Made by a program: the position numbers and the translations under genes. The notes beneath the pieces are model-generated. The model did no database searches. It was not told the DNA's origin and saw nothing but the letters and a program-made list of their open reading frames with translations. From the IMG/VR virus record IMGVR_UViG_2872164251_000001: a DNA stretch of 46,293 bases; one strand, written 5' to 3'. This DNA comes from a virus (lineage: Duplodnaviria > Heunggongvirae > Uroviricota > Caudoviricetes). This document shows, piece by piece, positions 1,040 to 23,186 of this stretch. Within the stretch, counting starts at the first letter, position 1. The number at the start of each line of letters is the position of its first letter.

Positions 1040-2208
<1,169 letters not shown>

Positions 2209-4171: not shown

Positions 4172-4225
4172 CCTGTTTACCTCCTTCTCAGGAAGTTTAG
4201 TCTCCAGGATTCCCGGGGCGGTTCA

Positions 4226-4645: not shown

Positions 4646-4814
4646 CCCATCCCAATCCCTTCAATACCAGAAAGAAAGCGTCGAGCGAGCTTTAACGTGC
4701 GCTAATTGCGGTCAGAAGCTGCATGTGCTGGAAGTTCACGTGTGTGAGCACTGCTGCGCAGAACTGATGAGCGATCCGAATAGCTCAATGTACGAGGAAG
4801 AAGACGATGAATGA
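4638..4814 (+). CDS. ninF: NinF-like small Cys-rich protein
   Basis: ESVERALTCANCGQKLHVLEVHVCEHCCAELMSDPNSS matches lambda NinF as I recall it; start overlaps upstream stop. Confidence 0.55.
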   Translation: MLSPSQSLQYQKESVERALTCANCGQKLHVLEVHVCEHCCAELMSDPNSSMYEEEDDE

Positions 4815-5529
4815 GTTAATAAATGGCAATGCCATCAAAATGACAAGCATTGAAATCGCTGAGTTGGTTGGTAAGCGTCATGACAATGTGAAACGTACCA
4901 TCGAAACGCTGGCTAAAAATGGTGTTATCCGGCTTCCTCAAATTGAGGATTGTGGAAGAATCAATGGGTTAGGCTTAAATCAAAGTTTTTGTGTGTATGT
5001 GTTCGAAGGCGAACAAGGAAAGCGAGACAGTATTGTCGTTGTAGCCCAGTTGTCGCCGGAATTCACCGCTCGCCTTGTTGACCGCTGGCGAGAGCTTGAA
5101 GAAGCTGCGGTTAATATCCCCAAAACGCTACCGGAAGCGTTGCGCCTTGCTGCTGATCTTGCTGAGCAGAAAATGCAACTGGAAAACCAGCTCGCAATTG
5201 CCGCACCTAAAGTTGAGTTTGCCGATCGCGTTGGCGAGGCCAGCGGAATTTTGATTGGAAACTTTGCAAAGGTTGTTGGAATTGGTCCAAACAAACTGTT
5301 TGCGTGGATGCGCGATCACAAAATCCTTATTGCTTCAGGTTCCCGGCGCAATGTGCCAATGCAGGAATATATGGATCGCGGCTATTTCACAGTGAAAGAA
5401 ACAGCGGTCAACACAAATCACGGAATACAGATATCGTTCACCACAAAAATCACCGGGCGTGGTCAACAGTGGCTGACCAGAAAGCTGCTCGATAATGGAA
5501 TGCTGAAAGTAACAGGGGAGGCTGCTTAA
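4807..5529 (+). CDS. Rha-family regulatory protein with C-terminal ANT/KilAC antirepressor domain
   Basis: MTSIEIAELVGKRHDNVKRTIETL Rha-like N-terminus; ADRVGEASGILIGNFAKVVGIG ANT-like C-terminus. Confidence 0.7.
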   Translation: MNELINGNAIKMTSIEIAELVGKRHDNVKRTIETLAKNGVIRLPQIEDCGRINGLGLNQSFCVYVFEGEQGKRDSIVVVAQLSPEFTARLVDRWRELEEAAVNIPKTLPEALRLAADLAEQKMQLENQLAIAAPKVEFADRVGEASGILIGNFAKVVGIGPNKLFAWMRDHKILIASGSRRNVPMQEYMDRGYFTVKETAVNTNHGIQISFTTKITGRGQQWLTRKLLDNGMLKVTGEAA

Positions 5530-5819
5530 TGGCTAATCTACGCAAAGAAGCACGCGGCAGAGAATGCCAGGTACGTATTTACGGCGTATGCAATGGTAAT
5601 CCTGAAACTACAGTTCTGGCACATTACCGGATGGCTGGAATTTGCGGAACGGGAATGAAGCCTGACGACCTGATCGGCGCATGGGCTTGTAGCGCGTGTC
5701 ACGATGAAATCGACCGACGCACCCATAATCTCGACAACAAAGACGCCAGACTTTACCACCTCGAAGGCGTGATCAGGACGCAGGCGATACTGCTGAAGGA
5801 GGGGAAGATTAAGTCATGA
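5529..5819 (+). CDS. DUF1364 (YbcO-like) putative nuclease
   Basis: ARGRECQVRIYGVCNGNPETTVLAHYR...ACSACHDEIDRRTH; position upstream of rusA. Confidence 0.7.
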   Translation: MANLRKEARGRECQVRIYGVCNGNPETTVLAHYRMAGICGTGMKPDDLIGAWACSACHDEIDRRTHNLDNKDARLYHLEGVIRTQAILLKEGKIKS

Positions 5820-6178
5820 GCGAATATCAGTTTGTGCTTCCATACCCGCCGTCGGTGAACACCTACTGGCGAAGACGGGGAAACCAATACTACATCAGCG
5901 ATAAAGGCCAGAAATACCGAAAAGAAGTTCAGCAAATAATCCTCCAACTCAAGTTAGACATTTTCACCAAATCACGACTCCGCATCAAAGTCATCGCAGA
6001 CGTTCCAGACTCCCGCCGCCGCGACCTCGATAACATCCTGAAAGGTTTACTCGACTCCCTTATCCACGCCGGATTTGCGGAAGACGACGAGCAATTCGAT
6101 GACATTCGCGTAATTCGTGGTGTGAAAGTACCAGGCGGAAGGCTTGGAATAAAAATCACCGAACTGGAGAACGTATGA
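5816..6178 (+). CDS. rusA: RusA Holliday-junction resolvase
   Basis: LPYPPSVNTYWRRRG...RRRDLDNILKGLLDSL...GGRLGIKITE. Confidence 0.85.
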   Translation: MSEYQFVLPYPPSVNTYWRRRGNQYYISDKGQKYRKEVQQIILQLKLDIFTKSRLRIKVIADVPDSRRRDLDNILKGLLDSLIHAGFAEDDEQFDDIRVIRGVKVPGGRLGIKITELENV

Positions 6179-6363
6179 ACGCCACAATTCAAACGATACC
6201 AGAGCTTCTTATCCAGACACGAGGCAATCAGACCGAAGTGGCGAGGATGCTTTCCTGCGCAAGAGGAACAGTGCTCAAGTACAACCGAGACAGCAAAGGC
6301 GAGCGTCACGTAATAGTTAACGGCGTCCTGATGGTCAAACAGGGCAAGAGGGGAAGACGATGA
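6175..6363 (+). CDS. ninH: NinH-like protein
   Basis: IPELLIQTRGNQTEVARMLSCARGTVLKY...IVNGVLMV resembles lambda NinH. Confidence 0.65.
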   Translation: MNATIQTIPELLIQTRGNQTEVARMLSCARGTVLKYNRDSKGERHVIVNGVLMVKQGKRGRR

Positions 6364-6983
6364 GACTCGAAAGCGTAGCTAAATTTCATTCGCCAAAAAG
6401 CCCGATGATGAGCGACTCACCACGGGCCACGGCTTCTGACTCTCTTTCCGGTACTGATGTGATGGCTGCTATGGGGATGGCGCAATCACAAGCCGGATTC
6501 GGAATGGCTGCATTCTGTGGTAAGCACGAACTCAGCCAGAACGACAAACAAAAGGCTATCAACTATCTGATGCAATTTGCACACAAGGTATCGGGGAAAT
6601 ACCGTGGCGTTGCAAAGCTTGAAGGAAATACTAAGGCAAAGGTACTGCAAGTGCTCGCAACATTCGCTTATGCGGATTATTGCCGTAGTGCCGCGACGCC
6701 GGGCGCAAGATGCAGAGATTGCCACGGTACAGGCCGTGCGGTTGATATTGCCAAAACAGAGCTGTGGGGGAGAGTTGTTGAGAAAGAGTGTGGAAGATGC
6801 AAAGGCGTCGGCTATTCAAGGATGCCAGCAAGCGCCGCATATCGCGCTGTAACGATGCTAATCCCCAACCTTACCCAACCCACATGGTCACGCACTGTTA
6901 AGCCGCTGTATGACGCTCTGGTGGTGCAATGCCACAAGGAAGAGTCAATCGCAGACAATATTTTGAATGCGGTCACACGTTAG
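6360..6983 (+). CDS. Q: Late antiterminator Q, lambda type
   Basis: 207 aa, MRLESVAKFHSPKSPMMSDSPRATASDS... with Cys4 zinc motif CRDCHGTG...CGRCKG; followed by lambda-like PR'. Confidence 0.85.
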   Translation: MRLESVAKFHSPKSPMMSDSPRATASDSLSGTDVMAAMGMAQSQAGFGMAAFCGKHELSQNDKQKAINYLMQFAHKVSGKYRGVAKLEGNTKAKVLQVLATFAYADYCRSAATPGARCRDCHGTGRAVDIAKTELWGRVVEKECGRCKGVGYSRMPASAAYRAVTMLIPNLTQPTWSRTVKPLYDALVVQCHKEESIADNILNAVTR

Positions 6984-7025
6984 CAGCATGATTGCCACGG
7001 ATGGCAACATATTAACGGCATGATA

Positions 7026-7054
7026 TTGACTTATTGAATAAAGTTGGGTAAATT
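7026..7054 (+). promoter_or_regulatory. PR' late promoter (-35 TTGACT, 17-bp spacer, -10 TAAATT) with qut region
   Basis: TTGACTtattgaataaagttgggTAAATT immediately downstream of Q. Confidence 0.6.
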
Positions 7055-7060
7055 TGACCC

Positions 7061-7253
7061 AACGATGGGTTAATTCGCTCGTTGTGGTAGTGAGATGAAA
7101 AGAGGCGGCGCTTACTACCGATTCCGCCTAGTTGGTCACTTCGACGTATCGTCTGGAACTCCAACCATCGCAGGCTGAGAGGTCTGCAAAATGCAATCCC
7201 GAAACAGTTCGCAGGTAATAGTTAGAGCCTGCATAACGGTTTCGGGATTTTTT
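7061..7253 (+). ncRNA. Short terminated late leader transcript (lambda 6S-RNA-like)
   Basis: From predicted PR' start to tR' hairpin; about 190 nt; ends inferred not measured. Confidence 0.5.
7196..7253 (+). terminator. tR' rho-independent terminator
   Basis: 10-bp arms ATCCCGAAAC / GTTTCGGGAT followed by TTTTTT. Confidence 0.6.
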
Positions 7254-7694
7254 ATATCTGCACAACAGGTAAGAGCATTGAGCCGATAATCGTGAAGAGT
7301 CGGCGAGCCTGGTTAGCCAGTGCTCTTTCCGTTGTGGTGAATGCACAGGCTGATGTGTAAGGGCAAGAATCTTTCGCTGGATTCGGTGTGGCCACGTAGC
7401 CAGCTGTAGGCAGTTGCAGCAAACCGGAGATCAGCACCGGTCGCCACAATCCAAACTGAGCCGTAGCCACTGACTATCCTGAATTCATCAGTGATAGTTA
7501 CGCTGCGGCCTTCTACACATGATCTTCGTGAAAGTGGGCGGCATGAGGTTGCGCTAACAACCTAATGCCGTTTTGCCCGTGCATATCGGTCACGAACAAA
7601 TCTGATTACTAAACACAGTAGCCTGGATTTGTTCTATCAGTAATCGACCTTATTCCTAATTAAATAGAGCAAATCCCCTTATTGGGGGTAAGAC

Positions 7695-8018
7695 ATGAAG
7701 ATGCCAGAAAAACATGACCTGTTAGCCGCCATTCTCGCGGCAAAGGAACAAGGCATCGGGGCAATCCTTGCGTTTGCAATGGCGTACCTTCGCGGCAGAT
7801 ATAATGGCGGTGCGTTTACAAAAACAGTAATCGACGCAACGATGTGCGCCATCATCGCCTGGTTCATTCGTGACCTTCTCGACTTCGCCGGACTAAGTAG
7901 CAATCTCGCTTATATAACGAGCGTGTTCATCGGCTACATCGGTACTGACTCGATTGGTTCGCTTATCAAACGCTTCGCTGCTAAAAAAGCCGGAGTAGAA
8001 GATGGTGGAAATCAATAA
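7695..8018 (+). CDS. S: Holin S, lambda type (dual-start MKM)
   Basis: [43 protein letters not shown]... Confidence 0.9.
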
Positions 8019-8478
8019 TCAACGTAAGGCGTTCCTCGATATGCTGGCGTGGTCAGAGGGAACTGATAACGGACGTCAGAAAACCAGAAATCATGGTTAT
8101 GACGTCATTGTAGGCGGAGAGCTATTTACTGATTACTCCGATCATCCTCGCAAACTTGTCACACTAAACCCAAAACTAAAATCAACAGCCGCCGGACGTT
8201 ATCAGCTTCTTTCCCGTTGGTGGGATGCTTACCGTAAGCAGCTTGGCCTGAAAGACTTCTCTCCGAAAAGCCAGGACGCTGTGGCACTGCAACAGATTAA
8301 AGAACGTGGCGCTTTACCGATGATTGATCGCGGTGATATTCGTCAGGCAATTGACCGTTGCAGCAATATCTGGGCTTCACTTCCGGGCGCTGGTTATGGT
8401 CAGTTCGAGCATAAGGCTGACAGCCTGATTGCAAAATTCAAAGAAGCAGGCGGAACGGTCAGAGAGATTGATGTATGA
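8002..8478 (+). CDS. R: Endolysin R (lytic transglycosylase)
   Basis: [52 protein letters not shown]. Confidence 0.9.
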
Positions 8479-8942
8479 GCAGAGTCACCGCGATTATCTC
8501 CGCTCTGGTTATCTGCATCATCGTCTGCCTGTCATGGGCGGTTAATCATTACCGTGATAACGCCATGACCTACAAAGAGCAGCGAGATAAAAAAGTCAGT
8601 GAGCTGAAGCAGGCGACCGCCACCATTACTGACATGCAGCAACGCCAGCGTGCTGCTGATGCACTCGATGCTAAATACACGAAGGAGTTAGCTGATGCGA
8701 AAGCTGAAAATGATGCTCTTCGGCGCAAGCTTGATAATGGTGGCAGGGTGCTCGTCAAAGGAAAATGCCCTGTGCCATCCTCAGCCGAAACCTCCAGCGC
8801 CTCCGGCATGGGCAATGATGCCACCGTCGAACTCTCTCCAGTTGCTGGACGAAACGTTCTCGGTATCCGGGACGGAATTATCCGCGACCAAACAGCACTG
8901 AGAACGCTTCAGGAATACATCAGGACGCAATGCCTTCGATGA
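8475..8942 (+). CDS. Rz: Rz i-spanin
   Basis: N-terminal [32 protein letters not shown] then coiled coil; central region differs from lambda Rz as I recall it. Confidence 0.8.
8695..8901 (+). CDS. Rz1: Rz1 o-spanin lipoprotein embedded in Rz (+1 frame)
   Basis: [19 protein letters not shown] lipobox then Pro-rich segment. Confidence 0.7.
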
Positions 8943-9116
8943 TAGCGATAATTTTACTCATCATCCTTCACATCTGGCTCTGTAGACAGGGGGGTGATCA
9001 CTTCTGGAGTAAATCCAGATTAAACATCTCATTGCTGATGCTTGATATTGAGCATCTGGCGCGCGGTAAGGGGCTGCGTTGAGATAAGAGCCAGTCATCA
9101 CAAACACCAGGATTTA

Positions 9117-9140
9117 GCCTCGCATTCGCGGGGCTTTTTT
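9117..9140 (+). terminator. Putative rho-independent terminator after lysis cassette
   Basis: CCTCGC att GCGGGG stem (one G-U pair) followed by CTTTTTT. Confidence 0.4.
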
Positions 9141-9287
9141 ATATCTGCAACAAACGCGCTTCACACGCGCGACTTATGAACACAGAGCCTTTCAGGATGA
9201 CCCTTGAGGATGCCGGTTTGGTAATCGGTGCCTTTCTGTGGGCCGGAATCCTGTGTGACAAGGTTCATCACTAAAAGGTAATCACTG

Positions 9288-9793
9288 ATGAAGTACCCAA
9301 CAGTTATTGTCAATGGTGTGTCCGTTCGTGTTGATGAGGATGGACGCTACAACTTAAACGATCTCCATGCAGCAGCAGTTGCAAATGGAGAGGCTACAGA
9401 GCAACAGCGCCCAAGCCAGTTTTTGCGTAGCGCGCAGATAAAACGCTTCATAAAAGCACTTTGGAACAAATTCAACCACTTAAAATAATCAAAGGTGGTG
9501 CAGAACCAGGTGTGTGGGGTGTTGAACTTCTGGCAATCAGATATGCAGCATGGATTAAGCCGGAATTTGAAATCGAAGTTTATGAAGTTTTCAAAACGGT
9601 TGTCCGTCTCGGCGTTGGCGCAATGTCCCGTCTGAATAGAATCGATCACATCATCAATACTGAAACCAAAGCGATAAGCCAGTGCGCAAGCCAAATGGCT
9701 AAGTGGGGCGTTGGTGGGCGAAAAAGATTGCTTCATGTTGCACGTGAGAGAGCGGCAAATGAAGTGCAAATGTATTTGCCCGGAATGGTGTGA
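9288..9793 (+). pseudogene. KilA-N domain gene, frameshifted near 9455-9465
   Basis: 9288-9488 (VIVNGVSVRVDEDGRYNLNDLH) and 9461-9793 (GVWGVELLAIRYAAWIKPEFEIEVYEVF) are consecutive parts of one KilA-N domain in different frames; paralog of 20981-21778. Confidence 0.6.
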
Positions 9794-10234
9794 TTTCGCA
9801 GGTTAATCCAGTTTTTGCATTACGGCAGTACCGCGAAACAACCCAAGCCAGTAAGTGGGGAAATAACACTGGCAGCCACTGAAAGATGAACCTCCAGCCT
9901 TATGGCAAAAAAGATTCTTTGTGGTGGCGGACTGATGGAAAGACATCGGTTATTGCAGAGGCCATTCAATGAGTGGTCTCGATAATGGCTTATACCCTAC
10001 ACGGGATAACTTAACTGATATCCCTTTTAACGGATAAACGGAGCCAACAATGGCAGAGATTATTCCCATGACTGAAGAACAGAAATTCCAGTTAGAGATT
10101 TACAAACTGGTTATGAACCAGAACGCAGCCGCAGAAGAAGCATTTCAGTTCATTGGCACTGATGAAGTGGCACACTGAATTTGGCCACCTGAACAGAGGT
10201 GATATGCTCACCTCAGAACAACACAGGTGCTCCA

Positions 10235-11403
<1,169 letters not shown>

Positions 11404-11411
11404 CCACTTCA

Positions 11412-11501
11412 TTTCTTGCCTCAAATGGCAGTACGTTAACTATTCAGTCAAATGGTGCGGCGTTTACTGCCACAACCATCAAGATAATCGCGGAGCAGTG
11501 A
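11412..11501 (+). pseudogene. 3' end of a gene truncated by IS911 (possibly a P22-type tail-needle gene)
   Basis: Frame open from IS junction: FLASNGSTLTIQSNGAAFTATTIKIIAEQ stop, stop overlaps next ATG. Confidence 0.2.
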
Positions 11502-11956
11502 TGATTCAGTTCAAACCAACGCGAAACATCGACCTGATCGAAGCAGTAGGAAATCACACTGACATTATCGCCGGGAGCAACAACGGCGATGGATACGACT
11601 ACAAGCCTGAATGCCGTTACTTTGAGGTTAACGTGCACGGGCAGTTCGGCGGAATTGTTTACTATCAGGAGATTCAGCCGCTAACCTTTGATTGCCACGC
11701 CATGTACCTGCCAGAGATTCGTGGATTCAGCAAGGAAATCGGGCTGGCGTTCTGGCGATACATTCTGACTAACACCACCGTTCAGTGCGTCACATCGTTC
11801 GCTGCGCGCAAATTCCGCCACGGTCAGATGTACTGCGCAATGATTGGCCTTAAGCGTGTAGGAACCATCAAGAAATACTTCAAAGGCGTGGATGACGTGA
11901 CGTTTTACAGCGCCACACGCGAAGAACTAATCGACTTCCTGAATCACGGGAGATAG
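11501..11956 (+). CDS. Hypothetical virion protein, P22 gp14-like by position
   Basis: 152-aa ORF with GGAG RBS, immediately upstream of the gp7-like gene; assignment by gene order only. Confidence 0.35.
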   Translation: MIQFKPTRNIDLIEAVGNHTDIIAGSNNGDGYDYKPECRYFEVNVHGQFGGIVYYQEIQPLTFDCHAMYLPEIRGFSKEIGLAFWRYILTNTTVQCVTSFAARKFRHGQMYCAMIGLKRVGTIKKYFKGVDDVTFYSATREELIDFLNHGR

Positions 11957-11958
11957 CC

Positions 11959-12651
11959 ATGTTATATGCATTTAAGCTGGGCAGAAAACTGCGCGGCGAG
12001 GAACCTTATTGCCCTGAAAAAGGCGGGAAAGGTGGCAGCTCTGATAAAAGCGCAAAGTATGCAGCAGAAGCTCAGAAGTATGCCGCAGACCTGCAAAATC
12101 AGCAGTGGCAGACGATCATGAAAAACCTTGCTCCGTTCACGCCTCTTGCGGAGCAGTATGTTAACCAGCTTCAGAACCTTTCCAGTTTAGAAGGTCAGGG
12201 GCAGGCACTTAATCAGTATTACAACTCTCAGCAGTATAAAGACCTTGCAGGTCAGGCTCGTTACCAGAGTCTTGCTGCTGCGGAGGCGACGGGTGGACTT
12301 GGTTCGACAGCCACAAGCAATCAACTGGCTACGATCGCGCCGACACTCGGTCAGTCTTGGTTATCAAACCAGATGAGCAATTACAACAATCTGGCAAACG
12401 TTGGGCTTGGTGCGCTGCAAGGTCAGGCAAACGCCGGGCAGACATACGCCAACAACATGAGCAGCATTGCACAGCAAAGCGCAGCTCTTGCCGCTGCTAA
12501 TGCCAACAAACCATCAAGTCTTCAGACAGCAATTAGTGGCGGAACGTCTGGTGCGATTGCCGGTGCAGGTCTTGCCAGCCTTTTGGGAACATCAACACCT
12601 TGGGGCGCTGGCATTGGTGCTGGTATCGGATTGCTTGGCTCGTTGTTTTAA
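11959..12651 (+). CDS. P22/Sf6 gp7-like ejection (injection) protein
   Basis: MLYAFKLGRKLRGEEPYCPEKGGKGGSSDKSAKYAAEAQKYAADLQNQQ..., Gln/Asn/Ala-rich, C-terminal glycine-zipper GAIAGAGLASLLG...GAGIGAGIGLLGSLF; recognised from memory of P22 gp7. Confidence 0.55.
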   Translation: MLYAFKLGRKLRGEEPYCPEKGGKGGSSDKSAKYAAEAQKYAADLQNQQWQTIMKNLAPFTPLAEQYVNQLQNLSSLEGQGQALNQYYNSQQYKDLAGQARYQSLAAAEATGGLGSTATSNQLATIAPTLGQSWLSNQMSNYNNLANVGLGALQGQANAGQTYANNMSSIAQQSAALAAANANKPSSLQTAISGGTSGAIAGAGLASLLGTSTPWGAGIGAGIGLLGSLF

Positions 12652-12660
12652 GGGGTAATC

Positions 12661-12714
12661 ATGGCTACTTGGCAAGGATCAAATGGCGGATTATTGGCTG
12701 GTATCGGCGGCGTC
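12661..12714 (+). pseudogene. 5' fragment of next ejection-protein gene (gp20-like) truncated by IS1
   Basis: MATWQGSNGGLLAGIGGV then the IS1 end. Confidence 0.35.
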
Positions 12715-12729
12715 GGTAATGACTCCAAC

Positions 12730-13233
12730 TTACTGATAGTGTTTTATGTTCAGATAATGCCCGATGACCTTGTCATGCAGCTCCACCGATTTTGAGAACG
12801 ACAGTGACTTCCGTCCCAGCCTTGCCAGATGTTGTCTCAGATTCAGATTATGTCGCTCAATGCGCTGAGTGTAACGCTTGCTGATAACGTGCAGCTTTCC
12901 CTTCAGGCGTGATTCATACAGCGGCCAGCCATCCGTCATCCATACCACGACCTCAAAGGCCGACAGCAGGCTCAGAAGACGCTCCAGTGTGGCCAGAGTG
13001 CGTTCACCGAAGACGTGCGCCACAACCGTCCTCCGTATCCTGTCATACGCGTAAAACAGCCAGCGCTGACGTGATTTAGCACCGACGTAGCCCCAATGTT
13101 CGTCCATTTCAGCGCAGACAATCACATCACTGCCCGGTTGTATGCGCGAGGTTACCGACTGCGGCCTGAGTTTTTTAAGTGACGTAAAACCGTGTTGAGG
13201 CCAACGCCCATAATGCGTGCGCTGGCGCGACAT
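12730..13233 (-). CDS. insB: IS1 InsB (expressed as InsAB' by frameshift)
   Basis: 167-aa ORF typical of IS1 InsB. Confidence 0.85.
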
Positions 13234-13427
13234 CCGACGCCATTCATGGCCATATCAATGATTTTCTGGTGCGTACCGGGCTGAGAGGCGGTGTAAGTGA
13301 ACTGTAGTTGCCATGTTTTACGGCAATGAGAGCAGAGATAGCGCTGATGTCCGGCAGTGCTTTTGCCGTTACGCACCACGCCTTCAGTAGCGGAGCAGGA
13401 AGGACATCTGATGGAAATGGAAGCCAC
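13152..13427 (-). CDS. insA: IS1 InsA
   Basis: [43 protein letters not shown]. Confidence 0.85.
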
Positions 13428-13482
13428 GCAAGCACCTTAAAATCACCATCATACACTAAATCAGTAAGTTGGCAGCATTACC

Positions 13483-13839
13483 AACTGGGGGTAATCCGTA
13501 TTTCTCACGGATTACGGAGTCTATTTTTTCTTCCATTTGTTTATAGTCAGGAAGAAGGCGTTTCAGTGGTGCGGGAATGTCCTGGCAATACGCTTCTGTT
13601 GCATCATGCATTAACGCTTCAAAAGCAAATTCCTGCGGCACCAGCTGGCTGCAAAGAACCGCATGTTGGGCGACGCTGTAGAAGTGCGAAAGATGACCGG
13701 CAAAGCGACAGATATTTGAAAGGGAAACCGCGATATCGTTAATATCGATGTCGTCTTTATTTATCCTGTCATAATAAAAATGCTTCCCGGAAAAAGTTTT
13801 AATAAATGACATTTTGTTCTCCACGTATATGCGCTGCAC
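13483..13839 (-). pseudogene. HD-domain protein (YfdR-like), C-terminally truncated by IS1
   Basis: H..HD signature (RFAGH ... LMHDATEAY); reading frame runs into the IS1 end. Confidence 0.5.
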
Positions 13840-13939
13840 CGCGCTGAATTCTGGTAAAAAGAATCCCTCACCATCCGGCGATTATTGAGTAAATTACGTT
13901 TCCATAAATGCCCCCGCAGGGGCATTTGCAGTAATGAAA

Positions 13940-14764
13940 TCAGGCGGTGAAAGTACCAATAAAGGTTTCTACTTTGCTGTCCTTGAATTTCTCAACAAGC
14001 AGATCACGAAATTCGTTAGCCATTTCTTCCTGCACCGCCTCCAGCTGAATAATGCGCAGAACCAGTACCGGACGATCGCCAGTGATAATGCTGAGGCGTA
14101 ATTTAAACGGACGTTCTTTCAGACCTTCAAACGGAATGCATTTAAATTCAAATGCCACTGGCATAATGTCTTTGGTCTTCGCTTCGACAGACTCCATCAG
14201 GGAGCGTTTGCCGCTGAAGTCATTATCTTCAAAATCAGCGGTCTGGTTTGCTTCAATCGTGATTTTACGGACCGCCGCAGCCGCTTTTGTTGCCTGAATG
14301 GTGTCACCATTAGCATCAAAGCCCACAAGGTAGTCGGCCCAGTCTTCAATCCATTCTGCCAGTGATTTCTGGGAGTTACGCTCGCCATTAACAGACAACA
14401 GAGCAGAGAACGGTGCTGTCTTTTTCAGTTTGAGAGTGGCGGTGTTATCTGCGTGACCTGGTTCATCAATAGTACCCAGGTTAAGCACACTGACGGCACG
14501 CATATTATCAGCATCGATAAAGCAGCGGGTGCCTTCATCTGCAAGATCTTTAGAATAACGGGTAAAGTCATCGATGCTGGCAGTGGAAAGCGCACCACGG
14601 AAACGGAAGCGATTTAAATTAAATTTTTCCAGATCATGAATGCGGAAATTCTCAGGCAATGCCACAGCATCGGCACCAATCTTACTGATAATTTCATTAA
14701 CACCCTGAGCAGAAATAAGGGCATGGATTTGATTAATTGCGGTTGCGTCTAAGTTCTGAGACAT
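13940..14764 (-). CDS. YfdQ-like (DUF2303) early-left protein
   Basis: 274-aa ORF, size and position match CPS-53 yfdQ as I recall it. Confidence 0.55.
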
Positions 14765-14829
14765 AATAAGTCCTAACTATATAAAGATATTCAGTGATGA
14801 GATAAATAATCAGTTAATTAAGAACGATA

Positions 14830-15193
14830 TTAATGACCTGCTGCGCGGAGTTTTCCGTCAGGTTCACCGGCAAGAGTCAGTAATTGTCCCTGGTCTTCCT
14901 GCAGAATAGTCAGGCGACCACCGCGATTGACATACATCGGCGTTTCGGTGGTGTCTTCTTCGGAAATTTTCCCGCGGTTAGTCGGGCGAACATATGAGAG
15001 TTTGTGTTTGATTTTCACACGGTTCTCATCAAATGGTTCGATTTCCAGGTTGAGTGAGACCTTACCTTTGGTTTTCGTGTTCATCACACCGGAAGCGACT
15101 TCACTGAGAACTGCGCCGATTTTGGTTTCAAATACGCCGCCGTCCAGCTCCCCGATAAATGCCTGCACATCAGTACTGCGTTCGCTAGCCATT
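14830..15193 (-). CDS. YfdP-like hypothetical early protein
   Basis: MASERSTDVQAFIGELDGG... with GAGGAG RBS; the longer upstream extension in the ORF track looks non-coding. Confidence 0.5.
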
Positions 15194-15629
15194 TTGCTGC
15201 TCCTCATCATATCGACCCTGCAAGGCCGATTAGTTTCTCCACAAAACAGAGAAGAACACCTGCGGTAGCAGCCGCCCGGATGGATTGGGTTATGAGCCCG
15301 TCGTCCGGTGATGCTCTTCTCTGTTTTGTAAAAAGGACGGTACCAGCCGGAAGCAAGGGTACAAACTGGTACCGCCAGGACTACACACAGCATAAAGTTG
15401 TGGTGCCGGGTGCCTCCCGGTGCCTGGCGAAGGTTGCACACCAGACGGGTGGGTATCCACAGAAGGTCGACTGTCAGCCTCAACCTTAACCCGCGTGCGC
15501 TGAGCCGCATTCACCACAACTCTAAGGATTCTCTTTGGTTGAAAATACTTAGCTGTTATGTGCCTGTCTTTTCACCACTTCAGGCTCGGTGGTATCCTTT
15601 TAAGCCCGTATACATAAAAGGAAAATCAA

Positions 15630-15875
15630 ATGACTTTTGATGAAAAAGAACTTGATAATGCAATTAATAAAATCATCGTAACGTCGCTCTTTTCCTGTCT
15701 CAGCGACACTCAGCAGAAACAGTTCTACGAATCGGCTTTCAACATGATCGAGCGTTGTTGTTTCTGCGATGCCGACGAGTTACCTGAAAAAATCAGGAAA
15801 CAGTTGGCTGATGCTCTTCGAGTGCGACTTTCTGACCAATTTTCTGAAATGTGCTCTCCGAATTTGGACAAATAG
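15630..15875 (+). CDS. Hypothetical 81-aa protein, antisense to the early-left operon
   Basis: AGGAAA RBS 7 nt before ATG; 3' end overlaps the convergent 15793-16068 ORF by about 80 bp. Confidence 0.3.
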   Translation: MTFDEKELDNAINKIIVTSLFSCLSDTQQKQFYESAFNMIERCCFCDADELPEKIRKQLADALRVRLSDQFSEMCSPNLDK

Positions 15876-16068
15876 AAAAAGGCCATTTCCATTCAGGGTC
15901 TGATGGAAATACTTCAGCCTGTTCCAAAGCACGGCGTAAAGAGAACACAACTCCAGCCATAATCTGATGTTTCCCATTGGTCCAGCTATCGCCGCTCTGA
16001 TCTACAGGGGCGGCTATGTCGTATGACCAAACGACTTCACAGTTATTGTTTAAAATCTGGACTTTCAT
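15793..16068 (-). CDS. Hypothetical 91-aa protein, first gene downstream of the PL-like promoter
   Basis: AGGTG RBS then ATG (MKVQILNNN...); occupies the N/rex-type position next to cI. Confidence 0.4.
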   Translation of the reverse strand: MKVQILNNNCEVVWSYDIAAPVDQSGDSWTNGKHQIMAGVVFSLRRALEQAEVFPSDPEWKWPFSICPNSESTFQKIGQKVALEEHQPTVS

Positions 16069-16189
16069 TTCATACACCTGCTTTAACATGAGTGCCTAGT
16101 GGCACAACATGACTCAACGAATCATCCTGGACTTCATATGCCCCAGGCGGCTACTTCGTGGGCGTCCTGCCTGTTCGTTGTTTCGCTTG

Positions 16190-16232
16190 GGTACATTATG
16201 TATCCCAAGGGTACATTGTCAAGTATAAAAAA
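16190..16232 (-). promoter_or_regulatory. PL-like early-left promoter with GGTACA-type operator half-sites (OL)
   Basis: Minus strand TTGACA-16 bp-CATAAT; overlapping GGGTACA / TGTATCCC inverted repeat. Confidence 0.45.
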
Positions 16233-16249
16233 ACCTGCCGAAGCAGGTT
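16226..16249 (-). terminator. Rho-independent terminator downstream of cI
   Basis: AACCTGCCGAAGCAGGTT hairpin followed by T-run on the minus strand. Confidence 0.55.
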
Positions 16250-16261
16250 CATAAACATTGA

Positions 16262-16936
16262 TTAGGCTTTGATTTTGTATCTTCTTGGTTTTCCTGAGAA
16301 AATCACTGTACCAATTATAGAGCAATTACCGTTGATCTTAATGTAAGGCTCAGGCCAGTTTGGGTTTAACGCTTTGAGATAACGCTGTGTCCCATCTTCT
16401 ATCAACCTTTTGAAGGTGGTTTCGCCTGTATCGTGCATCAATGCAATAACGTCGTCACCGTGGCAGGCAGGTACTTCAGGATCGACAAAAATCATGTCTC
16501 CCGGGCGGTACTCATCAATCATTGAATCACCTATCACCCGCAAGATATAAGTCATTTCCCCACAGGGTACAGGGCAGGGATACGTTTCTGCTGTGCTCAA
16601 ATCAACCTCAGAATATCCAACTTCTTTCCATGCTCCGGCCTGTACCCATGATATGACAGGGACTAATGTGATTTGTTTATTAGTGATTGAAACATCAGGT
16701 TTTTTTGTGATGTTCGTTGTCTGGTGTTCTTGATCGAGCCATCCGACAGGCAGGTCGAAACATTTTTCGATGTGTCGTGCCATGCTGTCACCGATATTTT
16801 TAGTAGCACCATCTCCCATAAACCTGCTGGTCTGGGTTGGCTCGCGATCAATCATAGTGGCAAAGGAAGAATTCCCGCCAACACCATCTCTCAGTTTTCT
16901 GGCGTTAGACCGCCGGATGTCATGGATTGTTTTCAT
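16262..16936 (-). CDS. cI: CI-type prophage repressor (HTH plus S24 LexA-like peptidase domain)
   Basis: Ala-Gly cleavage site (VQAGAW), Ser nucleophile in VIGDSM, divergent from a Cro-like gene. Confidence 0.85.
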   Translation of the reverse strand: MKTIHDIRRSNARKLRDGVGGNSSFATMIDREPTQTSRFMGDGATKNIGDSMARHIEKCFDLPVGWLDQEHQTTNITKKPDVSITNKQITLVPVISWVQAGAWKEVGYSEVDLSTAETYPCPVPCGEMTYILRVIGDSMIDEYRPGDMIFVDPEVPACHGDDVIALMHDTGETTFKRLIEDGTQRYLKALNPNWPEPYIKINGNCSIIGTVIFSGKPRRYKIKA

Positions 16937-17026
16937 AACGAAATTAAAACCCTTGTACCGTTAAGGTACAAGTGTCTTGGAGGTTCATTTCAATCATGTA
17001 ACATGTACACCGGAGGTACATATTGT
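16937..17026. promoter_or_regulatory. OR region: divergent PRM/PR promoters with palindromic operators
   Basis: Perfect 21-bp palindrome CTTGTACC-GTTAA-GGTACAAG at 16952-16972; ATGTAC-N7-GTACAT further right. Confidence 0.6.
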
Positions 17027-17227
17027 ATGAAAGCGTATTGGGACTCTTTAACCAAAGAACAGCAGGGCGAGTTGGCCGGAAAAGTTGGCTCAACACCTGG
17101 CTACTTACGGCTGGTTTTCAATGGCTATAAAAAAGCCAGTTTTGTGCTGGCTAAAAAACTTGAGCAATGCACGTCAGGTGCAATTACGAAATCTGACTTA
17201 AGACCGGATATCTATCCGAAAGATTAG
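17027..17227 (+). CDS. cro: Cro-like HTH regulator
   Basis: 66 aa, GGAGG RBS, divergent from cI across operators. Confidence 0.65.
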   Translation: MKAYWDSLTKEQQGELAGKVGSTPGYLRLVFNGYKKASFVLAKKLEQCTSGAITKSDLRPDIYPKD

Positions 17228-17258
17228 CAGAACACTTTCAATTTTTAACCACAGAACG

Positions 17259-17822
17259 ATGAGGCTAACCGTGGGTAAGCATCACTGGAAAATAGAAAAA
17301 CAGCCTGAGTGGTACGTGAAAGCTGTCAGAAAAACTATCGCGGCGTTGCCGGGTGGTTACGCTGAAGCGGCTGACTGGCTCGATGTAACAGAAAACGCTT
17401 TATTCAACCGCCTTCGTGCAGATGGCGATCAGATTTTCCCGCTGGGATGGGCAATGGTTTTACAGCGTGCTGGTGGCACTCACTTCATTGCTGATGCTGT
17501 GGCGCAGTCTGCAAATGGCGTCTTTGTGTCTCTTCCTGACGTCGAGGATGTGGACAACGCCGATATCAACCAACGCCTGCTGGAAGTCATTGAACAGATC
17601 GGCAGTTATTCAAAACAGATTCGTTCAGCAATTGAAGACGGTGTAGTGGAACCGCATGAGAAGACAGCAATTAACGATGAGCAGTACCTCTCAATTTCGA
17701 AGCTGCAGGAGCATGCAGCACTGGTCTACAAAATCTTTTGCGTTTCAGAAAGTAGTGACGCCCGCGAGTGTGCAGCTCCGGGCGCCGTGGCATGTCGTGA
17801 CTGTGGAGAAACTAACGCATGA
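17259..17822 (+). CDS. CII-like phage regulatory protein (uncertain family)
   Basis: 187-aa ORF in the cII position between cro and the replication gene. Confidence 0.35.
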
Positions 17823-18175
17823 ACAGTTTAACAACACACTACCGTCGCTCGCAACTGATTGCGCTTCCTGTACCGGGTGGAAAAGCGAAGGTGGAGTATT
17901 GCTATGCAGTAAATGTACCAGGTGACAGGGAAATTGTAACCCACAGCTTTGCAGAGTGGGCTGTGGGTGATTTCAACCGGCAGAAGGAGACAGTCCTTTG
18001 CGACAAGTTAACCGCTGGTTCAAAGAGCACTACGGAGTGCCCGTCAGAGTCATTCGTTGGGAGCCGGAAACACAACGTGTTATCTACCTCCGCGAAGGCT
18101 ATGAGCATGAGTGCTTCAGCCCGCTCGAACAGTTTCGTCGTAAATTCAGGGAAATAGAGGTCGGTCATGAGCACT
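17819..18175 (+). pseudogene. Small early gene with apparent frameshift (N-terminus in one frame, C-terminus in the -1 frame)
   Basis: Frame [32 protein letters not shown]... becomes Ser-rich junk after about 18000 while -1 frame reads [54 protein letters not shown] and ends overlapping the next ATG. Confidence 0.35.
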
Positions 18176-19108
18176 AAATTAACCGGCTATGTATGGGATG
18201 GTTGCGCTGCATCAGGCATGAAATTATCCAGCGTGGCAATTATGGCCCGCCTGGCTGATTTCAGTAATGACGAAGGTGTGTGCTGGCCATCAATTGAAAC
18301 CATTGCCCGCCAGATTGGCGCGGGAATGAGTACCGTCAGAACGGCTATCGCACGGCTGGAAGCAGAAGGCTGGTTAACGCGTAAGGCGCGTCGCCAGGGT
18401 AACCGCAATGCGTCGAATGTTTATCAGCTTAACGTTGCGAAGCTTCAGGCAGCGGCATTTTCTCAACTGTCAGATTCTGACCCGTCAAAATCTGACGCAT
18501 CAAAATCTGACCCGTCAAAATTTGATGCGTCGAAATCTGGCAAAAAAGCGGGTTTTCACCCGTCAGAATCTGGCGGGGATCCGTCAGTAAAATCAAAACA
18601 TGATCCGTCAGATAAAAAAACTTCTCGTCCGGACGCTTCGCAACCGGACACGCAGACGGCTGAACAGGAGTTTTTAACTCGCCATCCTGATGCGGTTGTA
18701 TTCAGCCCTAAAAAGCGCCAGTGGGGAACGCAGGATGATTTGACCTGCGCACAGTGGCTCTGGAAAAAAATCATCGCCCTGTACGAGCAGGCCGCCGAAT
18801 GTGACGGCGAGGTGGTTCGTCCCAAAGAACCGAACTGGACAGCCTGGGCAAACGAAATTCGCCTGATGTGTGTGCAGGATGGTCGTACTCATAAACAAAT
18901 CTGCGAGATGTACAGCCGCGTCAGTCGCGATCCGTTCTGGTGCCGTAACGTGCTCAGCCCGTCGAAGCTGCGGGAAAAATGGGATGAGCTTTCCCTGCGC
19001 TTATCGCCGTCCGTCAGCACGTACACCGAAAAACGCGAAGACCCGTACTTCAAAGCTAGTTACGACAACGTGGACTACAGCCAAATCCCGGCAGGATTCA
19101 GGGGGTGA
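18167..19108 (+). CDS. Replication initiator (lambda O-like) containing origin iterons
   Basis: N-terminal winged-HTH, central repeat-encoded SKSD segment, C-terminal conserved domain; position after cro/cII. Confidence 0.65.
   Translation: MSTKLTGYVWDGCAASGMKLSSVAIMARLADFSNDEGVCWPSIETIARQIGAGMSTVRTAIARLEAEGWLTRKARRQGNRNASNVYQLNVAKLQAAAFSQLSDSDPSKSDASKSDPSKFDASKSGKKAGFHPSESGGDPSVKSKHDPSDKKTSRPDASQPDTQTAEQEFLTRHPDAVVFSPKKRQWGTQDDLTCAQWLWKKIIALYEQAAECDGEVVRPKEPNWTAWANEIRLMCVQDGRTHKQICEMYSRVSRDPFWCRNVLSPSKLREKWDELSLRLSPSVSTYTEKREDPYFKASYDNVDYSQIPAGFRG
18468..18615 (+). repeat. Iteron array (putative ori) inside the initiator gene
   Basis: About 7 tandem copies of CCGTCA(A/G)AATCTGA-like 15-bp units. 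Confidence 0.55.
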
Positions 19109-19599
19109 GCATGAGTCTTTTGAATGACGTTCAGAAATTCATTGAAGCCCATCGGGGCTGTACTTCCGGAGATATTGCGGATGCTTTTGCCGGTTACTCA
19201 CGGCAGCGCGTTCTGCAGTCAGCAAGCAAGTTACGTCAGAGTGGGCGTGTGGCTCACCGTTGTGAAGGAGATACACGCAGACATTTCCCGCGCCTGACTG
19301 AGAGAGCGCAGGAACCGGAACCACAACCAGTTCGTGAAACCAGACCTGTGCGCAATTTCTATGTCGGCACTAACGATCCCCGTGTGATTTTGTGCCTGAC
19401 CCGCCAGGCGGAAGAACTGGAGTCCAGGGGCTTATACCGTCGTGCTGCAACCGTGTGGATGGCGGCATTCCGTGAAAGCCACTCCCAGCCAGAACGAAAC
19501 AATTTTCTGGCGCGTCGTGAGCGGTGCTTACGGAAAAGCAGCAAGCGCGCTGCATCGGGTGAAGAGTGGTATCTGTCAGGGAATTACGTGGGGGCTTAA
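19105..19599 (+). CDS. YfdN-like hypothetical protein
   Basis: 164-aa ORF translationally coupled to upstream and downstream genes. Confidence 0.4.
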   Translation: MSMSLLNDVQKFIEAHRGCTSGDIADAFAGYSRQRVLQSASKLRQSGRVAHRCEGDTRRHFPRLTERAQEPEPQPVRETRPVRNFYVGTNDPRVILCLTRQAEELESRGLYRRAATVWMAAFRESHSQPERNNFLARRERCLRKSSKRAASGEEWYLSGNYVGA

Positions 19600-20252
19600 T
19601 GAGTAATAAATATTGCCAGGCGCTGGTGGAACTGCGGAACAAACCAGCCCATGAACTGAAGGAAGTGGGCGATCAGTGGCGCACGCCGGACAACATTTTC
19701 TGGGGAATTAACACCCTGTTTGGCCCGTTTGTTCTGGATCTGTTCACTGACGGTGATAACGCCAAATGTGCCGCGTATTACACGGCGGAAGACAACGCGC
19801 TGGCGCATGACTGGTCAGAACGTCTTGCGGAGCTTAAAGGTGCTGCCTTTGGTAATCCCCCATACAGCCGCGCCAGTCAGCATGAGGGGCAATACATCAC
19901 CGGCATGCGTTACATCATGAAACATGCCAGTGCCATGCGTGATAAGGGCGGGCGCTATGTTTTCCTGATCAAAGCTGCCACCAGCGAAGTGTGGTGGCCG
20001 GAAGATGCAGATCATATTGCTTTTATTCGCGGGCGTATTGGTTTTGAACTGCCTGTCTGGTTTATCCCGAAAGACGAGAAGCAGGTACTGACAGGAGCTT
20101 TTTTCGCTGGTGCTATTGCTGTTTTTGACAAGACCTGGAAGGGACCGGCAATCAGCTACATCGGGCGCGATGAACTTGAGGCATGTGGTGAGGCGTTTCT
20201 GGCGCAGGTTCGCCAGCAGGCGGAAAAACTGGTCAGGGAGATGGCGGCATGA
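19599..20252 (+). CDS. Phage DNA N6-adenine methyltransferase (Dam-like)
   Basis: GNPPYS motif; TAATG overlap with upstream gene. Confidence 0.75.
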   Translation: MSNKYCQALVELRNKPAHELKEVGDQWRTPDNIFWGINTLFGPFVLDLFTDGDNAKCAAYYTAEDNALAHDWSERLAELKGAAFGNPPYSRASQHEGQYITGMRYIMKHASAMRDKGGRYVFLIKAATSEVWWPEDADHIAFIRGRIGFELPVWFIPKDEKQVLTGAFFAGAIAVFDKTWKGPAISYIGRDELEACGEAFLAQVRQQAEKLVREMAA

Positions 20253-20575
20253 CGACGTTAACTCAATGCCAGCAGCAGGTGCTGGATATGCTGATTTCTT
20301 ATCAGAAAGAACGTGGCTTCCCGCCAACCAATCAGGAGGTGGCAACCATGCTGGGATACCGTTCGGTGAATGCAGCGGTGGAGCATCTTCGCGCACTGGA
20401 GAAAAAAGGCGTCATCACGATAAAGCGTGGCGTGGCCCGGGGGATAACGCTTCATACCGCGGTGAAGGACGACGACAGCGAGGCGGTCGGGATTATCCGC
20501 GCACTGCTTGCCGGTGAGGAAAACGCAAGGCTGCGTGCAACCCACTGGTTACATGAGAGGGACCTGAAAGTATGA
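20249..20575 (+). CDS. LexA N-terminal DNA-binding-domain protein lacking the peptidase domain
   Basis: MTTLTQCQQQVLDMLISYQKERGFPPTNQEVATMLGYRSVNAAVEHLRALEKKGVITIKRGVARGITL parallels the LexA winged-HTH; ATGA overlaps on both sides. Confidence 0.6.
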   Translation: MTTLTQCQQQVLDMLISYQKERGFPPTNQEVATMLGYRSVNAAVEHLRALEKKGVITIKRGVARGITLHTAVKDDDSEAVGIIRALLAGEENARLRATHWLHERDLKV

Positions 20576-20961
20576 AGCTGATCCTGCCTTTTCCGCCCAG
20601 CGTGAACACGTACTGGCGACACCCCAACAAAGGGGCGTTTGCTGGTAAGAGCCTGATAAGCGCGGCGGGGCGAAAATTCCAGAGCGCGGCGTGCGCAGCA
20701 ATAGTTGAGCAGTTACGTCGTCTGCCGAAACCAACGTCGGCACCTGCTTCAGTGGAGATCGTGTTGTTTCCTCCGGATAACCGGATCCGCGATCTGGACA
20801 ACTATAACAAGGCGCTGTTTGACGCCCTGACCCACGCGGGTGTGTGGGAAGACGACAGTCAGGTGAAAAGAATGCTGGTGGAGTGGGGGCCGGTTATCCC
20901 GGAAGGGAAGGTCGAGATCACTATCAATAAGTACGAGAAAACGGCGGGTGCAGCCGCCTGA
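20572..20961 (+). CDS. rusA: RusA Holliday-junction resolvase (second copy)
   Basis: LPFPPSVNTYWRH...NRIRDLDNYNKALFDALT. Confidence 0.8.
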   Translation: MKLILPFPPSVNTYWRHPNKGAFAGKSLISAAGRKFQSAACAAIVEQLRRLPKPTSAPASVEIVLFPPDNRIRDLDNYNKALFDALTHAGVWEDDSQVKRMLVEWGPVIPEGKVEITINKYEKTAGAAA

Positions 20962-20980
20962 TTAAGAGGAGAAACGAAGT

Positions 20981-21778
20981 ATGAATAATCTGATGGTCAT
21001 TGATGGTATTGAAGTTCGTCGTGATGCTTATGGGCGTTACAGCCTGAACGATCTGCACAGGGCTGCCGGTTCTCAGGATAAGCATAAGCCTGCATTCTGG
21101 CTCCGCAATGAGCAAACCGAACGTTTAATAAGCGAGTTGCAGATTTGCAACTCGGTCAATATAGAGCCAGTTAACGTTAGTCGTGGCGGAAATAACCAGG
21201 GGACGTATGTCTGCAAAGAACTGGTGTATGCCTATGCAATGTGGATCAGCCCGTCATTCCATCTGAAGGTGATCCGTACTTTCGATATGGTAACCAGCGC
21301 ACCGGAAAAATTATCCGGGCAGGCTGCTGACAAGATGCAGGCTGGCGTGATTCTGCTGGACTTTATGCGGCGGGAGTTAAACCTGTCTAACTCATCTGTG
21401 CTTGGGGCCTGTCAGAAACTCCAGGAGGCTGTTGGCTTACCGAATCTGGCACCACGCTATGCCATTGATGCTCCTGCTGACGCGCCTGATGGCTCAAGTC
21501 GCCCTACGCTGTCGCTGAGTGCACTGCTGAAACAGTATGGTATCCGCCTGACAGCTAATCAGGCATATCACCAGATGGCGAAGCTGGGGATCGTTGAACA
21601 ACGCGAACGATACAGCCGTACCGCGATTAACAACATCAAAAAATTCTGGTCGCTGACGGCGAAAGGCTGCATGTTCGGCAAGAACATTACCAGTCCTGCA
21701 AATCCGCGCGAGACGCAGCCGCATTTCTTCGAATCCCGATTCCCTGAGCTGTTAAAGCTGCTCGATACCGTTCATTGA
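20981..21778 (+). CDS. KilA-N domain antirepressor-like protein
   Basis: MVIDGIEVRRDAYGRYSLNDLH...GTYVCKELVYAYAMWISPSFHLKVIRTF. Confidence 0.7.
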   Translation: MNNLMVIDGIEVRRDAYGRYSLNDLHRAAGSQDKHKPAFWLRNEQTERLISELQICNSVNIEPVNVSRGGNNQGTYVCKELVYAYAMWISPSFHLKVIRTFDMVTSAPEKLSGQAADKMQAGVILLDFMRRELNLSNSSVLGACQKLQEAVGLPNLAPRYAIDAPADAPDGSSRPTLSLSALLKQYGIRLTANQAYHQMAKLGIVEQRERYSRTAINNIKKFWSLTAKGCMFGKNITSPANPRETQPHFFESRFPELLKLLDTVH

Positions 21779-21779
21779 G

Positions 21780-22775
21780 GTGACCGTGAGAGCACTACTG
21801 ACCCCTGAAATTGCCCCGCGTATGGGGATCGTATTGTTCAGACCAGGTTCAGAGCTGATGCCCCTGTTTATGCAGGGGCGTGTACTGCTGGAGCCTGAGC
21901 CGGAACGTTATTCATCTTTCGCCAGTGGTGCCGTTCCCGCGGCATCACAACCGCTGGCGGATGATCCTGCTGTTCGGGCCGTGTTCCGCAATGAGGCAGT
22001 GATCCGTCGTGCTGGTGGCGTGGAATGTCTTGAAAGCTGGCTACTTCGTGAAAAAGGCTGCCAGTGGCCTCATTCCGACTGGCACAGCGAGAACATGACC
22101 ACAATGCGACACGCTCCGGGCGCAATCCGTCTGTGCTGGCACTGTGATAACCAGCTGCGCGATCAGTTCACGGAACGGCTGGAATCAATGGCAACGGATA
22201 ACTGTGCCCGCTGGGTGTTGTCTGTTGTGCGTCGGGATCTCGGTTTTGATGATAGTCACGTTGTGACAATGCCGGAACTGTGCTGGTGGCTGATTCGTAA
22301 TGACCTGGCGGATGCCTTACCGGAAAGTGCAGCCCGTAAGGCACTGAGATTACCAAAGCCTGTTGTGCCGTCTGTCACCCGGGAAAGTGACCTTGTGCCT
22401 TCGGTTCCTGCCACCAGCATCATCCAAGATAAGGCAAAAAAGGTGCTGGCGCTGAAAGTGGATCCGGAGTCGCCGGAGTCTTTTATGTTACGCCCAAAAC
22501 GTCGCCGCTGGGTTAATGAGAAGTACACGCGCTGGGTTAAGACACAGCCGTGTGCATGTTGTGGAAAGCCCGCTGATGATCCCCACCACCTGATAGGCCA
22601 CGGTCAGGGGGGAATGGGTACAAAAGCGCATGACCTCTTTGTGTTGCCTTTGTGCAGAAAGCATCACGACGAGCTGCATGCGGATACCGTGGCATTTGAA
22701 GAGAAGTATGGCTCCCAGCTGGAGCTGATATTTCGTTTTATCGATCGTGCGCTGGCAATTGGCGTGCTGGCCTGA
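21780..22775 (+). CDS. DUF968-like nin-region protein with C-terminal HNH-like Cys/His motif
   Basis: C-terminal CACCGKPADDPHHL...LPLCRKHHDELH. Confidence 0.5.
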   Translation: MTVRALLTPEIAPRMGIVLFRPGSELMPLFMQGRVLLEPEPERYSSFASGAVPAASQPLADDPAVRAVFRNEAVIRRAGGVECLESWLLREKGCQWPHSDWHSENMTTMRHAPGAIRLCWHCDNQLRDQFTERLESMATDNCARWVLSVVRRDLGFDDSHVVTMPELCWWLIRNDLADALPESAARKALRLPKPVVPSVTRESDLVPSVPATSIIQDKAKKVLALKVDPESPESFMLRPKRRRWVNEKYTRWVKTQPCACCGKPADDPHHLIGHGQGGMGTKAHDLFVLPLCRKHHDELHADTVAFEEKYGSQLELIFRFIDRALAIGVLA

Positions 22776-22789
22776 TTTGGTGGAGAAAG

Positions 22790-23158: not shown

Positions 23159-23186
23159 TAATACGCCCCATGCAGGGGCGTATTAT
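23159..23186. terminator. Bidirectional hairpin between Q and the antisense KAP NTPase gene
   Basis: ATACGCCCC atgca GGGGCGTAT palindrome. Confidence 0.5.

Follow-up and report, generated by a model that had tools for sequence, protein, structure and literature searches.

Classical IS1-promoted adjacent deletions are those reportedly described by Reif and Saedler in 1975 in the gal region of Escherichia coli. The hallmark of a transposase-mediated adjacent deletion is an end located precisely at the terminus of the IS, without microhomology (review PMC9330008). In Shigella IS1 is the dominant expanded IS, and IS-driven genome reduction comprises gene disruption, deletions and prophage decay, although an IS is difficult to establish as the cause of a deletion that lies in the past (Hawkey et al. 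2020, PMC7373316). The phages SfV and SfII (U82619.2, KC736978.1) have the gene order int-xis-orf28-orf29-orf30. Two such phages are known to occupy the proA-yaiC interval in tandem, and for SfI plus SfX tandem integration at thrW has been documented experimentally (PMC3306764). The YfdR protein of E. coli K-12 CPS-53 is an HD-domain protein that binds DnaA (PMC4776307).

The window, by which we mean the whole 46,293-nucleotide stretch of DNA that was analysed, contains an IS1 that joins the start of a P22 gp20-like gene to a truncated yfdR gene (Table 1). With an intact IS, a deletion starting at one IS terminus, the other flank unchanged, the target duplication lost and an ordinary new distal target, the locus closely resembles the IS1-promoted adjacent deletions. 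It differs from the E. coli gal case in that the interval is the boundary of two tandem prophages and not a metabolic operon; no mechanistic difference is visible. The locus is also similar to the reduction described for Shigella by Hawkey et al. (PMC7373316) but, unlike in that work, the pre- and post-deletion states both survive here in near-identical strains, so that the deletion can be attributed directly to IS1. The prophage on the right (prophage B) shares the SfV/SfII gene order; from orf30 to cI it has 99.3% identity to SfV, and its tail-fibre/acyltransferase end has 99% identity to SfII. Unlike both phages it has lost attL, int, xis, orf28, orf29 and a portion of orf30, and upstream it adjoins a P22/Sf6-like remnant (prophage A) whose thrW-type integrase is a different one. 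The truncated gene, yfdR′, is homologous to yfdR of CPS-53 and belongs to the same yfdQ-yfdR-yfdS-yfdT-type cluster; unlike the CPS-53 protein its product retains only residues 1–110, followed by 8 residues encoded by IS1. Every component is thus already known (IS1 and its adjacent deletions, the SfV/SfII and Sf6-like modules, prophage decay in Shigella, and YfdR), and the window sequence itself is present in GenBank at 100% identity; this is a clean but ordinary instance. No paper describing the gp20-IS1-yfdR junction was found in the literature.

Table 1. Features of the window at and around the gp20-IS1-yfdR junction
Feature	Position	Strand	Description
Prophage-A integrase, 3′ part	1-1031	-	Stop codon at 1-3; Pfam Phage_integrase, E 8.6e-35
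P22 gp14-like gene, prophage A	11501-11956	+	Pfam DUF2824, E 1e-52; together with gp7, 97.2% identical in nucleotide sequence to Sf6 (genes 9-12)
P22 gp7-like ejection protein gene, prophage A	11959-12651	+	Intact; Pfam P22_gp7, E 1.8e-134, full length
gp20′ (P22 gp20-like / Sf6 gene 12 ejection protein)	12661-12714	+	First 18 codons; intact gene 431-468 codons
Distal deletion end-point, GGCGGCGTC	12706-12714		Now abuts the left terminus of IS1; unduplicated; read from sequence
Complete IS1	12715-13482	-	768 bp
IS1 IRR	12715-12737		
insB′	12730-13233	-	167 aa; Pfam DDE_Tnp_IS1, E 1e-73
insA	13152-13427	-	91 aa; Pfam Zn_ribbon_InsA and HTH_Tnp_IS1
IS1 IRL	13460-13482		
Surviving right-hand copy of the 9-bp target duplication, AACTGGGGG	13483-13491		Made by IS1 insertion into yfdR
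yfdR′ (SfV orf30 homologue, HD-domain protein)	13483-13812	-	N-terminal 110 of 178 codons
yfdQ (DUF2303; SfV orf31)	13940-14764	-	Pfam DUF2303, E 8e-92; first intact prophage-B gene right of the junction
Prophage B (SfV/SfII-type)	13483-46293		Runs past the right end of the window

The IS1 element and the reading frames that enter it

A reading made from the letters alone (the sequence-only reading) had described a complete IS1 with unequal 9-bp flanks, and both statements are borne out. The element has exact ends, terminal inverted repeats and both ORFs. The repeats (GGTAATGACTCCAACTTACTGAT and GGTAATGCTGCCAACTTACTGAT) are of the GGTAATG type, ~23 bp and imperfect, matching at 20 of 23 positions, and the A6C frameshift motif (AAAAAAC) is located at 13170-13176, corresponding to position 307 of IS1. 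Length, inverted repeats, insA and insB′ with a -1 frameshift at A6C, and an IS1-type DDE transposase are all those of the IS1 family. Full-length alignment to annotated IS1 copies gives 96-100% identity; the window IS1 is 100% identical to the copies in the Shigella flexneri strains VA-6, SFL1520 and K-1770, and 96.1% identical to one E. coli IS1 (L001). On the left side megablast with 12200-12800 as query, in 5,426 complete E. coli genomes, gives hundreds of alignments to homologues of the flank, every one of which stops at 12714, while on the right side all of the homologue alignments begin at 13483 (megablast of 13400-14000 against complete E. coli genomes). The 9-mers directly outside these boundaries are GGCGGCGTC and AACTGGGGG. 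No direct repeat of any length flanks the IS1 in the window, and shifting the boundaries does not restore a duplication. The unrelated E. coli IS1 L001, analysed in the same way as a control, is flanked by an exact 9-bp repeat, CAGATCATG, which shows that the method picks up a duplication where one exists.

To the left of the element the genes gp14, gp7 and gp20 follow each other as in Sf6 and P22-like prophages. The gp20′ segment is identical to the start of intact gp20 in two loci, and the full-length homologue matches Pfam Inj_translocase (E 2e-77), in keeping with a gp20-type ejection protein. The sequence GGCGGCGTC occurs once in intact gp20, where it is followed by AACTCAAAC. In the window the gp20′ frame reads on into IS1 and stops at 12795; the resulting 44-aa gp20′-IS1 fusion ORF gave no record in an exact-protein look-up.

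From the right the frame of yfdR′ likewise enters IS1, as the sequence-only reading had held for both sides. After 110 codons it continues with the 8 IS1-encoded codons (GNAANLLI) to a stop at 13456-13458, giving a product of 118 residues. The same reading had proposed to estimate the missing C-terminus from intact homologues, and this comparison shows the loss of 68 of the 178 codons, including the Asp of the conserved KYAD sequence that is the last conserved Asp of the HD motif; H50 and H69-D70 are kept. The nucleotide identity is 100% to E. coli yfdR and 99.3% to SfV, and both E. coli ECONIH4 and SfV have the target sequence AACTGGGGG once in their uninterrupted yfdR. Profile support for the HD assignment is borderline, with a Pfam YfbR-like score of 25.1 bits for truncated and full-length YfdR alike (cut-off 25.9) and an NCBIfam score of 20.5 against 122. 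Residues 19-175 of a full-length YfdR homologue align to the HD protein Atu1052 (PDB 2gz4; E 3.4e-14), with the VAQH, HDA and AD motifs aligned. The end coordinate of that reading, 13839, is an upstream GTG on the minus strand, whereas the annotated start of the homologues is the ATG at 13812. A 127-aa yfdR′ product starting at the GTG gave no record in an exact-protein look-up. The 118-residue product is found in 110 blocks of the assembly collection, and is common to the insertion and deletion states described below.

Independent IS1 insertions are found elsewhere in yfdQ or yfdR of related prophages in several complete E. coli genomes; one of these, located in yfdQ, is the element with the CAGATCATG duplication, and the yfdQ/yfdR pair has thus been struck repeatedly by IS1. 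Four full-coverage E. coli matches (H1 and H41-H43) were considered as the same junction and rejected, being independent IS1 insertions of this kind at other yfdQ/yfdR sites.

Two prophages in tandem at proA/thrW

Positions 1-23812 of the window are 100% identical to S. flexneri 3b SFL1520 (CP032513.1), from overlapping matches 1-19793 and 3456-23812, and in that genome proA lies ~200 bp to the left of window position 1. The window can thus be assigned to the S. flexneri chromosome by its sequence. Prophage A is a decayed lambdoid/P22-like element with the order int::IS911, xis, an IS3-family element, nin, Q, lysis, IS911, gp14, gp7 and gp20′. Its int-xis segment is 97.9% identical in nucleotide sequence to that of mEp213/HK542, phages with an attP annotated as thrW-like, and its integrase is only 55% identical in amino acid sequence to SfV Int; the integrase is of the thrW-specific mEp213/HK542 type. 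E. coli P13-6 was considered as the ancestral context and rejected. Its gp7-gp20 region is 99.8% identical, but the remnant is located at lambda att (ybhC-bioA), and this is a module match only. The exact gp7 protein is found in 23,288 blocks of the assembly collection and exact YfdQ in 7,236, and the contexts returned were E. coli only.

Prophage B is a serotype-converting prophage of the SfV/SfII type. Its left end is absent (attL, int, xis, orf28, orf29 and the 3′ end of yfdR), so that the sequence opens within yfdR and then continues with cI and the replication, lysis, head and Mu-like tail genes. The late genes of prophage A run rightwards from a thrW-type int at its left end, and the early-left genes of prophage B point leftwards, as in the order thrW-int-xis-orf28-orf29-yfdR-yfdQ of SfV and E. 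coli prophages. From these orientations the two prophages are collinear and in tandem at proA/thrW, in one orientation. Comparison with the SfV and E. coli order indicates that prophage B lacks exactly its attL-proximal end, and a single deletion would be able to fuse the two remnants because they lie in tandem in the same orientation.

Origin of the junction

The comparison of the junction across genomes that the sequence-only reading had suggested is provided by S. flexneri VA-6 (GCA_000213695.2; strain named in PMC6397287), in which two contigs were reached by exact-protein look-ups. AFGW01000011.1 follows window 1-12714 with 1 mismatch and then continues as uninterrupted gp20 (...GGCGGCGTC AACTCAAACGC...) for 331 bp to the contig end; codon 18 of gp20 in VA-6 is thus an empty site, without IS1. 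AFGW01000012.1 carries an IS1 that matches that of the window at 768 of 768 positions, sits at the same yfdR site, points the same way and has a copy of AACTGGGGG at either end. The 9-bp duplication that accompanies a simple insertion is therefore absent in the window but present for the same IS1 copy in VA-6. On the left of the VA-6 IS1 the yfdR 3′ end, orf29 (DUF551), orf28, xis and a stretch of int follow SfV 21140-22915 collinearly (99.4%), and on its right the sequence is 100% identical to window 13483-23742 (10,260 bp). The left flank consists of the yfdR 3′ end in VA-6 and of gp20 up to codon 18 in the window, replaced from the very base that adjoins the IS1 terminus; IS1 itself and the right flank do not differ. 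Writing a slash at each boundary, the insertion state has the junctions CTCATAACTGGGGG/GGTAATGACTCC and CATTACC/AACTGGGGGTAATCC, and the deletion state GGCGGCGTC/GGTAATGACTCC and CATTACC/AACTGGGGGTAATCC. The pair seen in the window is also present in SFL1520, a closed genome from hybrid long-read data, and in K-1770, an independent assembly.

VA-6 thus keeps the pre-deletion state, with a yfdR IS1 flanked by its duplication and an empty gp20 site. Judged from the aligned strains the polarity is unambiguous, with a normal IS1 insertion into yfdR first and the state of the window derived from it by loss. The proposal that an IS1-adjacent deletion had fused two unrelated phage remnants is supported by this comparison. 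It can be refined with regard to yfdR, which was cut by the original insertion and not by the deletion. The sequence-only reading had also held that a 9-bp duplication emerging on correction of the boundaries would count against it. Since the duplication is missing in the window yet present in the ancestor-like VA-6, the result agrees with the deletion model and confirms it.

That an IS1-anchored deletion followed a simple insertion is close to certain. In a first step, shown by VA-6, IS1 inserted in the normal way into yfdR (SfV orf30), duplicating the target AACTGGGGG and cutting the HD-domain protein after residue 110; the recipient was an SfV/SfII-type prophage that followed a decayed lambdoid/P22-like one in tandem beside proA/thrW. 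In the lineage of the window the same IS1 would then have promoted an adjacent deletion (step 2), an event evident from the two states, and by a chemistry that we take to be intramolecular transposition, in which the left terminus of IS1 (IRR, 12715) would attack the site in gp20 of the upstream prophage A. From prophage B this would remove one copy of the target duplication, the yfdR 3′ end, orf29, orf28, xis, int and the att junction, and from prophage A the tailspike end, gp16 and all of gp20 except its 18 codons. IS1 and the right flank were left untouched, so that the target duplication is no longer present, and what remains are two prophage remnants, fused to each other and no longer expected to be mobile. 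Deletion starts directly beyond the last base of the IRR terminus, without microhomology, and the product has the form a-IS-c with the orientation of the IS kept, which is the deletion and not the inversion outcome of intramolecular transposition. The new target GGCGGCGTC is GC-rich. A GC-rich target is not known to be typical of IS1, and this counts equally against one-step deletion and against the recombination between two IS1 copies considered below.

The size of the deletion is estimated as ~9-11 kb. The two VA-6 prophages are on separate contigs (11 and 12, respectively), so both their adjacency and the deletion size are inferred across the contig gap rather than read. The lost sequence visible in VA-6 is at least 2,107 bp (331 + 1,776 bp). 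The estimate comes from the SfV map, with ~2.3-2.5 kb from attP to the target site, together with the ~6-8 kb that P22-like prophages occupy between the gp20 start and the far side of the tailspike/O-antigen-modification module.

The deletion was probably made in one step by the transposase of the resident IS1, although the one-step chemistry is not readable from sequence. The principal alternative, which we regard as possible but the less probable course, is that a second IS1 inserted at gp20 codon 18 in the same orientation, with its own GGCGGCGTC duplication, and that RecA-dependent recombination between the direct copies then removed the DNA between them, so that a single hybrid IS1 was left, flanked on either side by the sequence of a different insertion. 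Such recombination gives exactly the observed structure. [quoted passage not shown] It requires however an extra, unobserved intermediate, which would show all four junctions (the insertion pair plus GGCGGCGTC/GGTAATGACTCC and CATTACC/GGCGGCGTCAACTCAAACGC), and the gp20 site of VA-6 is empty. There is also a slight indication against a chimeric element, in that the window copy is identical to the VA-6 yfdR copy at 768 of 768 positions, while 1-3 mismatches in ~530 bp separate it from two further S. flexneri copies. The reciprocal junctions (yfdR 3′ end with the duplication and IS1, and IS1 with GGCGGCGTC and gp20) were found zero times in genome and metagenome contig collections; these collections lack this Shigella lineage and also show zero observed junctions, so that this count is uninformative. 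Neither junction of the window is found in complete E. coli genomes.

It is very improbable that IS1 entered a pre-existing gp20-yfdR fusion without duplication, or that the junction was created in assembly by collapse of the IS1 repeat. Short-read assemblies do break at this IS1, with four loci ending inside it, and intact gp20 continues beyond the break with AACT, which are the first four bases of the right flank. In VA-6, however, the IS1 sat in an otherwise intact yfdR before any fusion, and the presence of the junction pair in both the hybrid long-read closed genome of SFL1520 and the independent K-1770 assembly argues against an artefact. The AACT identity (between AACTCAAAC after the gp20 break and the start of AACTGGGGG) was rejected as a microhomology; it is 4 bp long, with a probability of ~1/256, its register fits no mechanism, and it is ascribed to chance.

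Consequences and further rearrangements of the two prophages

The insertion itself would have inactivated yfdR, because the last Asp of the HD motif is lost. Following the deletion prophage B should no longer be able to excise, because int, xis and attL have been removed, and prophage A, already defective, would have lost its distal virion genes. The IS1-anchored deletion accounts for an SFL1520-like prophage without its integrase end, and for the 118-residue YfdR fragment annotated in many assemblies. It is an unusually clean natural example of genome reduction driven by IS1, in which the intermediate (VA-6) and the product (SFL1520, K-1770 and the window) both survive, and the junction could act as a lineage marker; significance beyond this bookkeeping is small. 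An improbable extension is that the locus reflects selected domestication and not neutral decay, in which the loss of int, xis and attL would lock the O-antigen-modifying cargo of the SfV/SfII-type prophage into the chromosome, the 110-residue YfdR fragment might keep some DnaA-related activity, and the loss of the tailspike and ejection-protein end of prophage A would form part of the same change.

Prophage A contains further IS elements. The first IS911 (1032-2280) is a simple insertion in the integrase gene, with a CTT duplication. The second (10163-11411) lacks a 3-bp target duplication, having the flanks tga and ttt, and stands in place of ~9.2 kb of P22-like terminase and head genes; beside it are a DUF2560-like gene cut to 42 aa (10050-10178) and what is left of the tail-needle gene, its terminal 90 bp (11412-11500). 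It marks another IS-anchored deletion in prophage A. The two IS911 copies are 99% identical and mutually inverted, and are therefore a substrate for inversion of the 7.9-kb nin-Q-lysis segment. Between xis and the nin region an IS3-family element of 1,250 bp (2976-4225), with IS629-like ends (TGAACCGCCCCGGG), occupies the expected place of the whole early and immunity region. Its ORF at 3018-3908 encodes an IS3-family transposase with exact-protein matches at unrelated loci.

Prophage B is a mosaic. The early-left part (13483-17000) is 99.3% identical to SfV, while in the tail-fibre-assembly/acyltransferase end (44800-46293) identity to SfII is 99% and only 27% of the length aligns with SfV. 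Between its Q antiterminator and holin genes, on the opposite strand, lies a gene for a KAP-family P-loop NTPase (23187-24518, minus strand), the exact protein of which is found in 394 blocks of the assembly collection. It has the appearance of a moron and is possibly a defence gene. A 300-bp direct repeat with 84% identity (7992-8291 and 25135-25434) is shared between the lysis cassettes of prophages A and B, and could serve as a site of homologous recombination between them.
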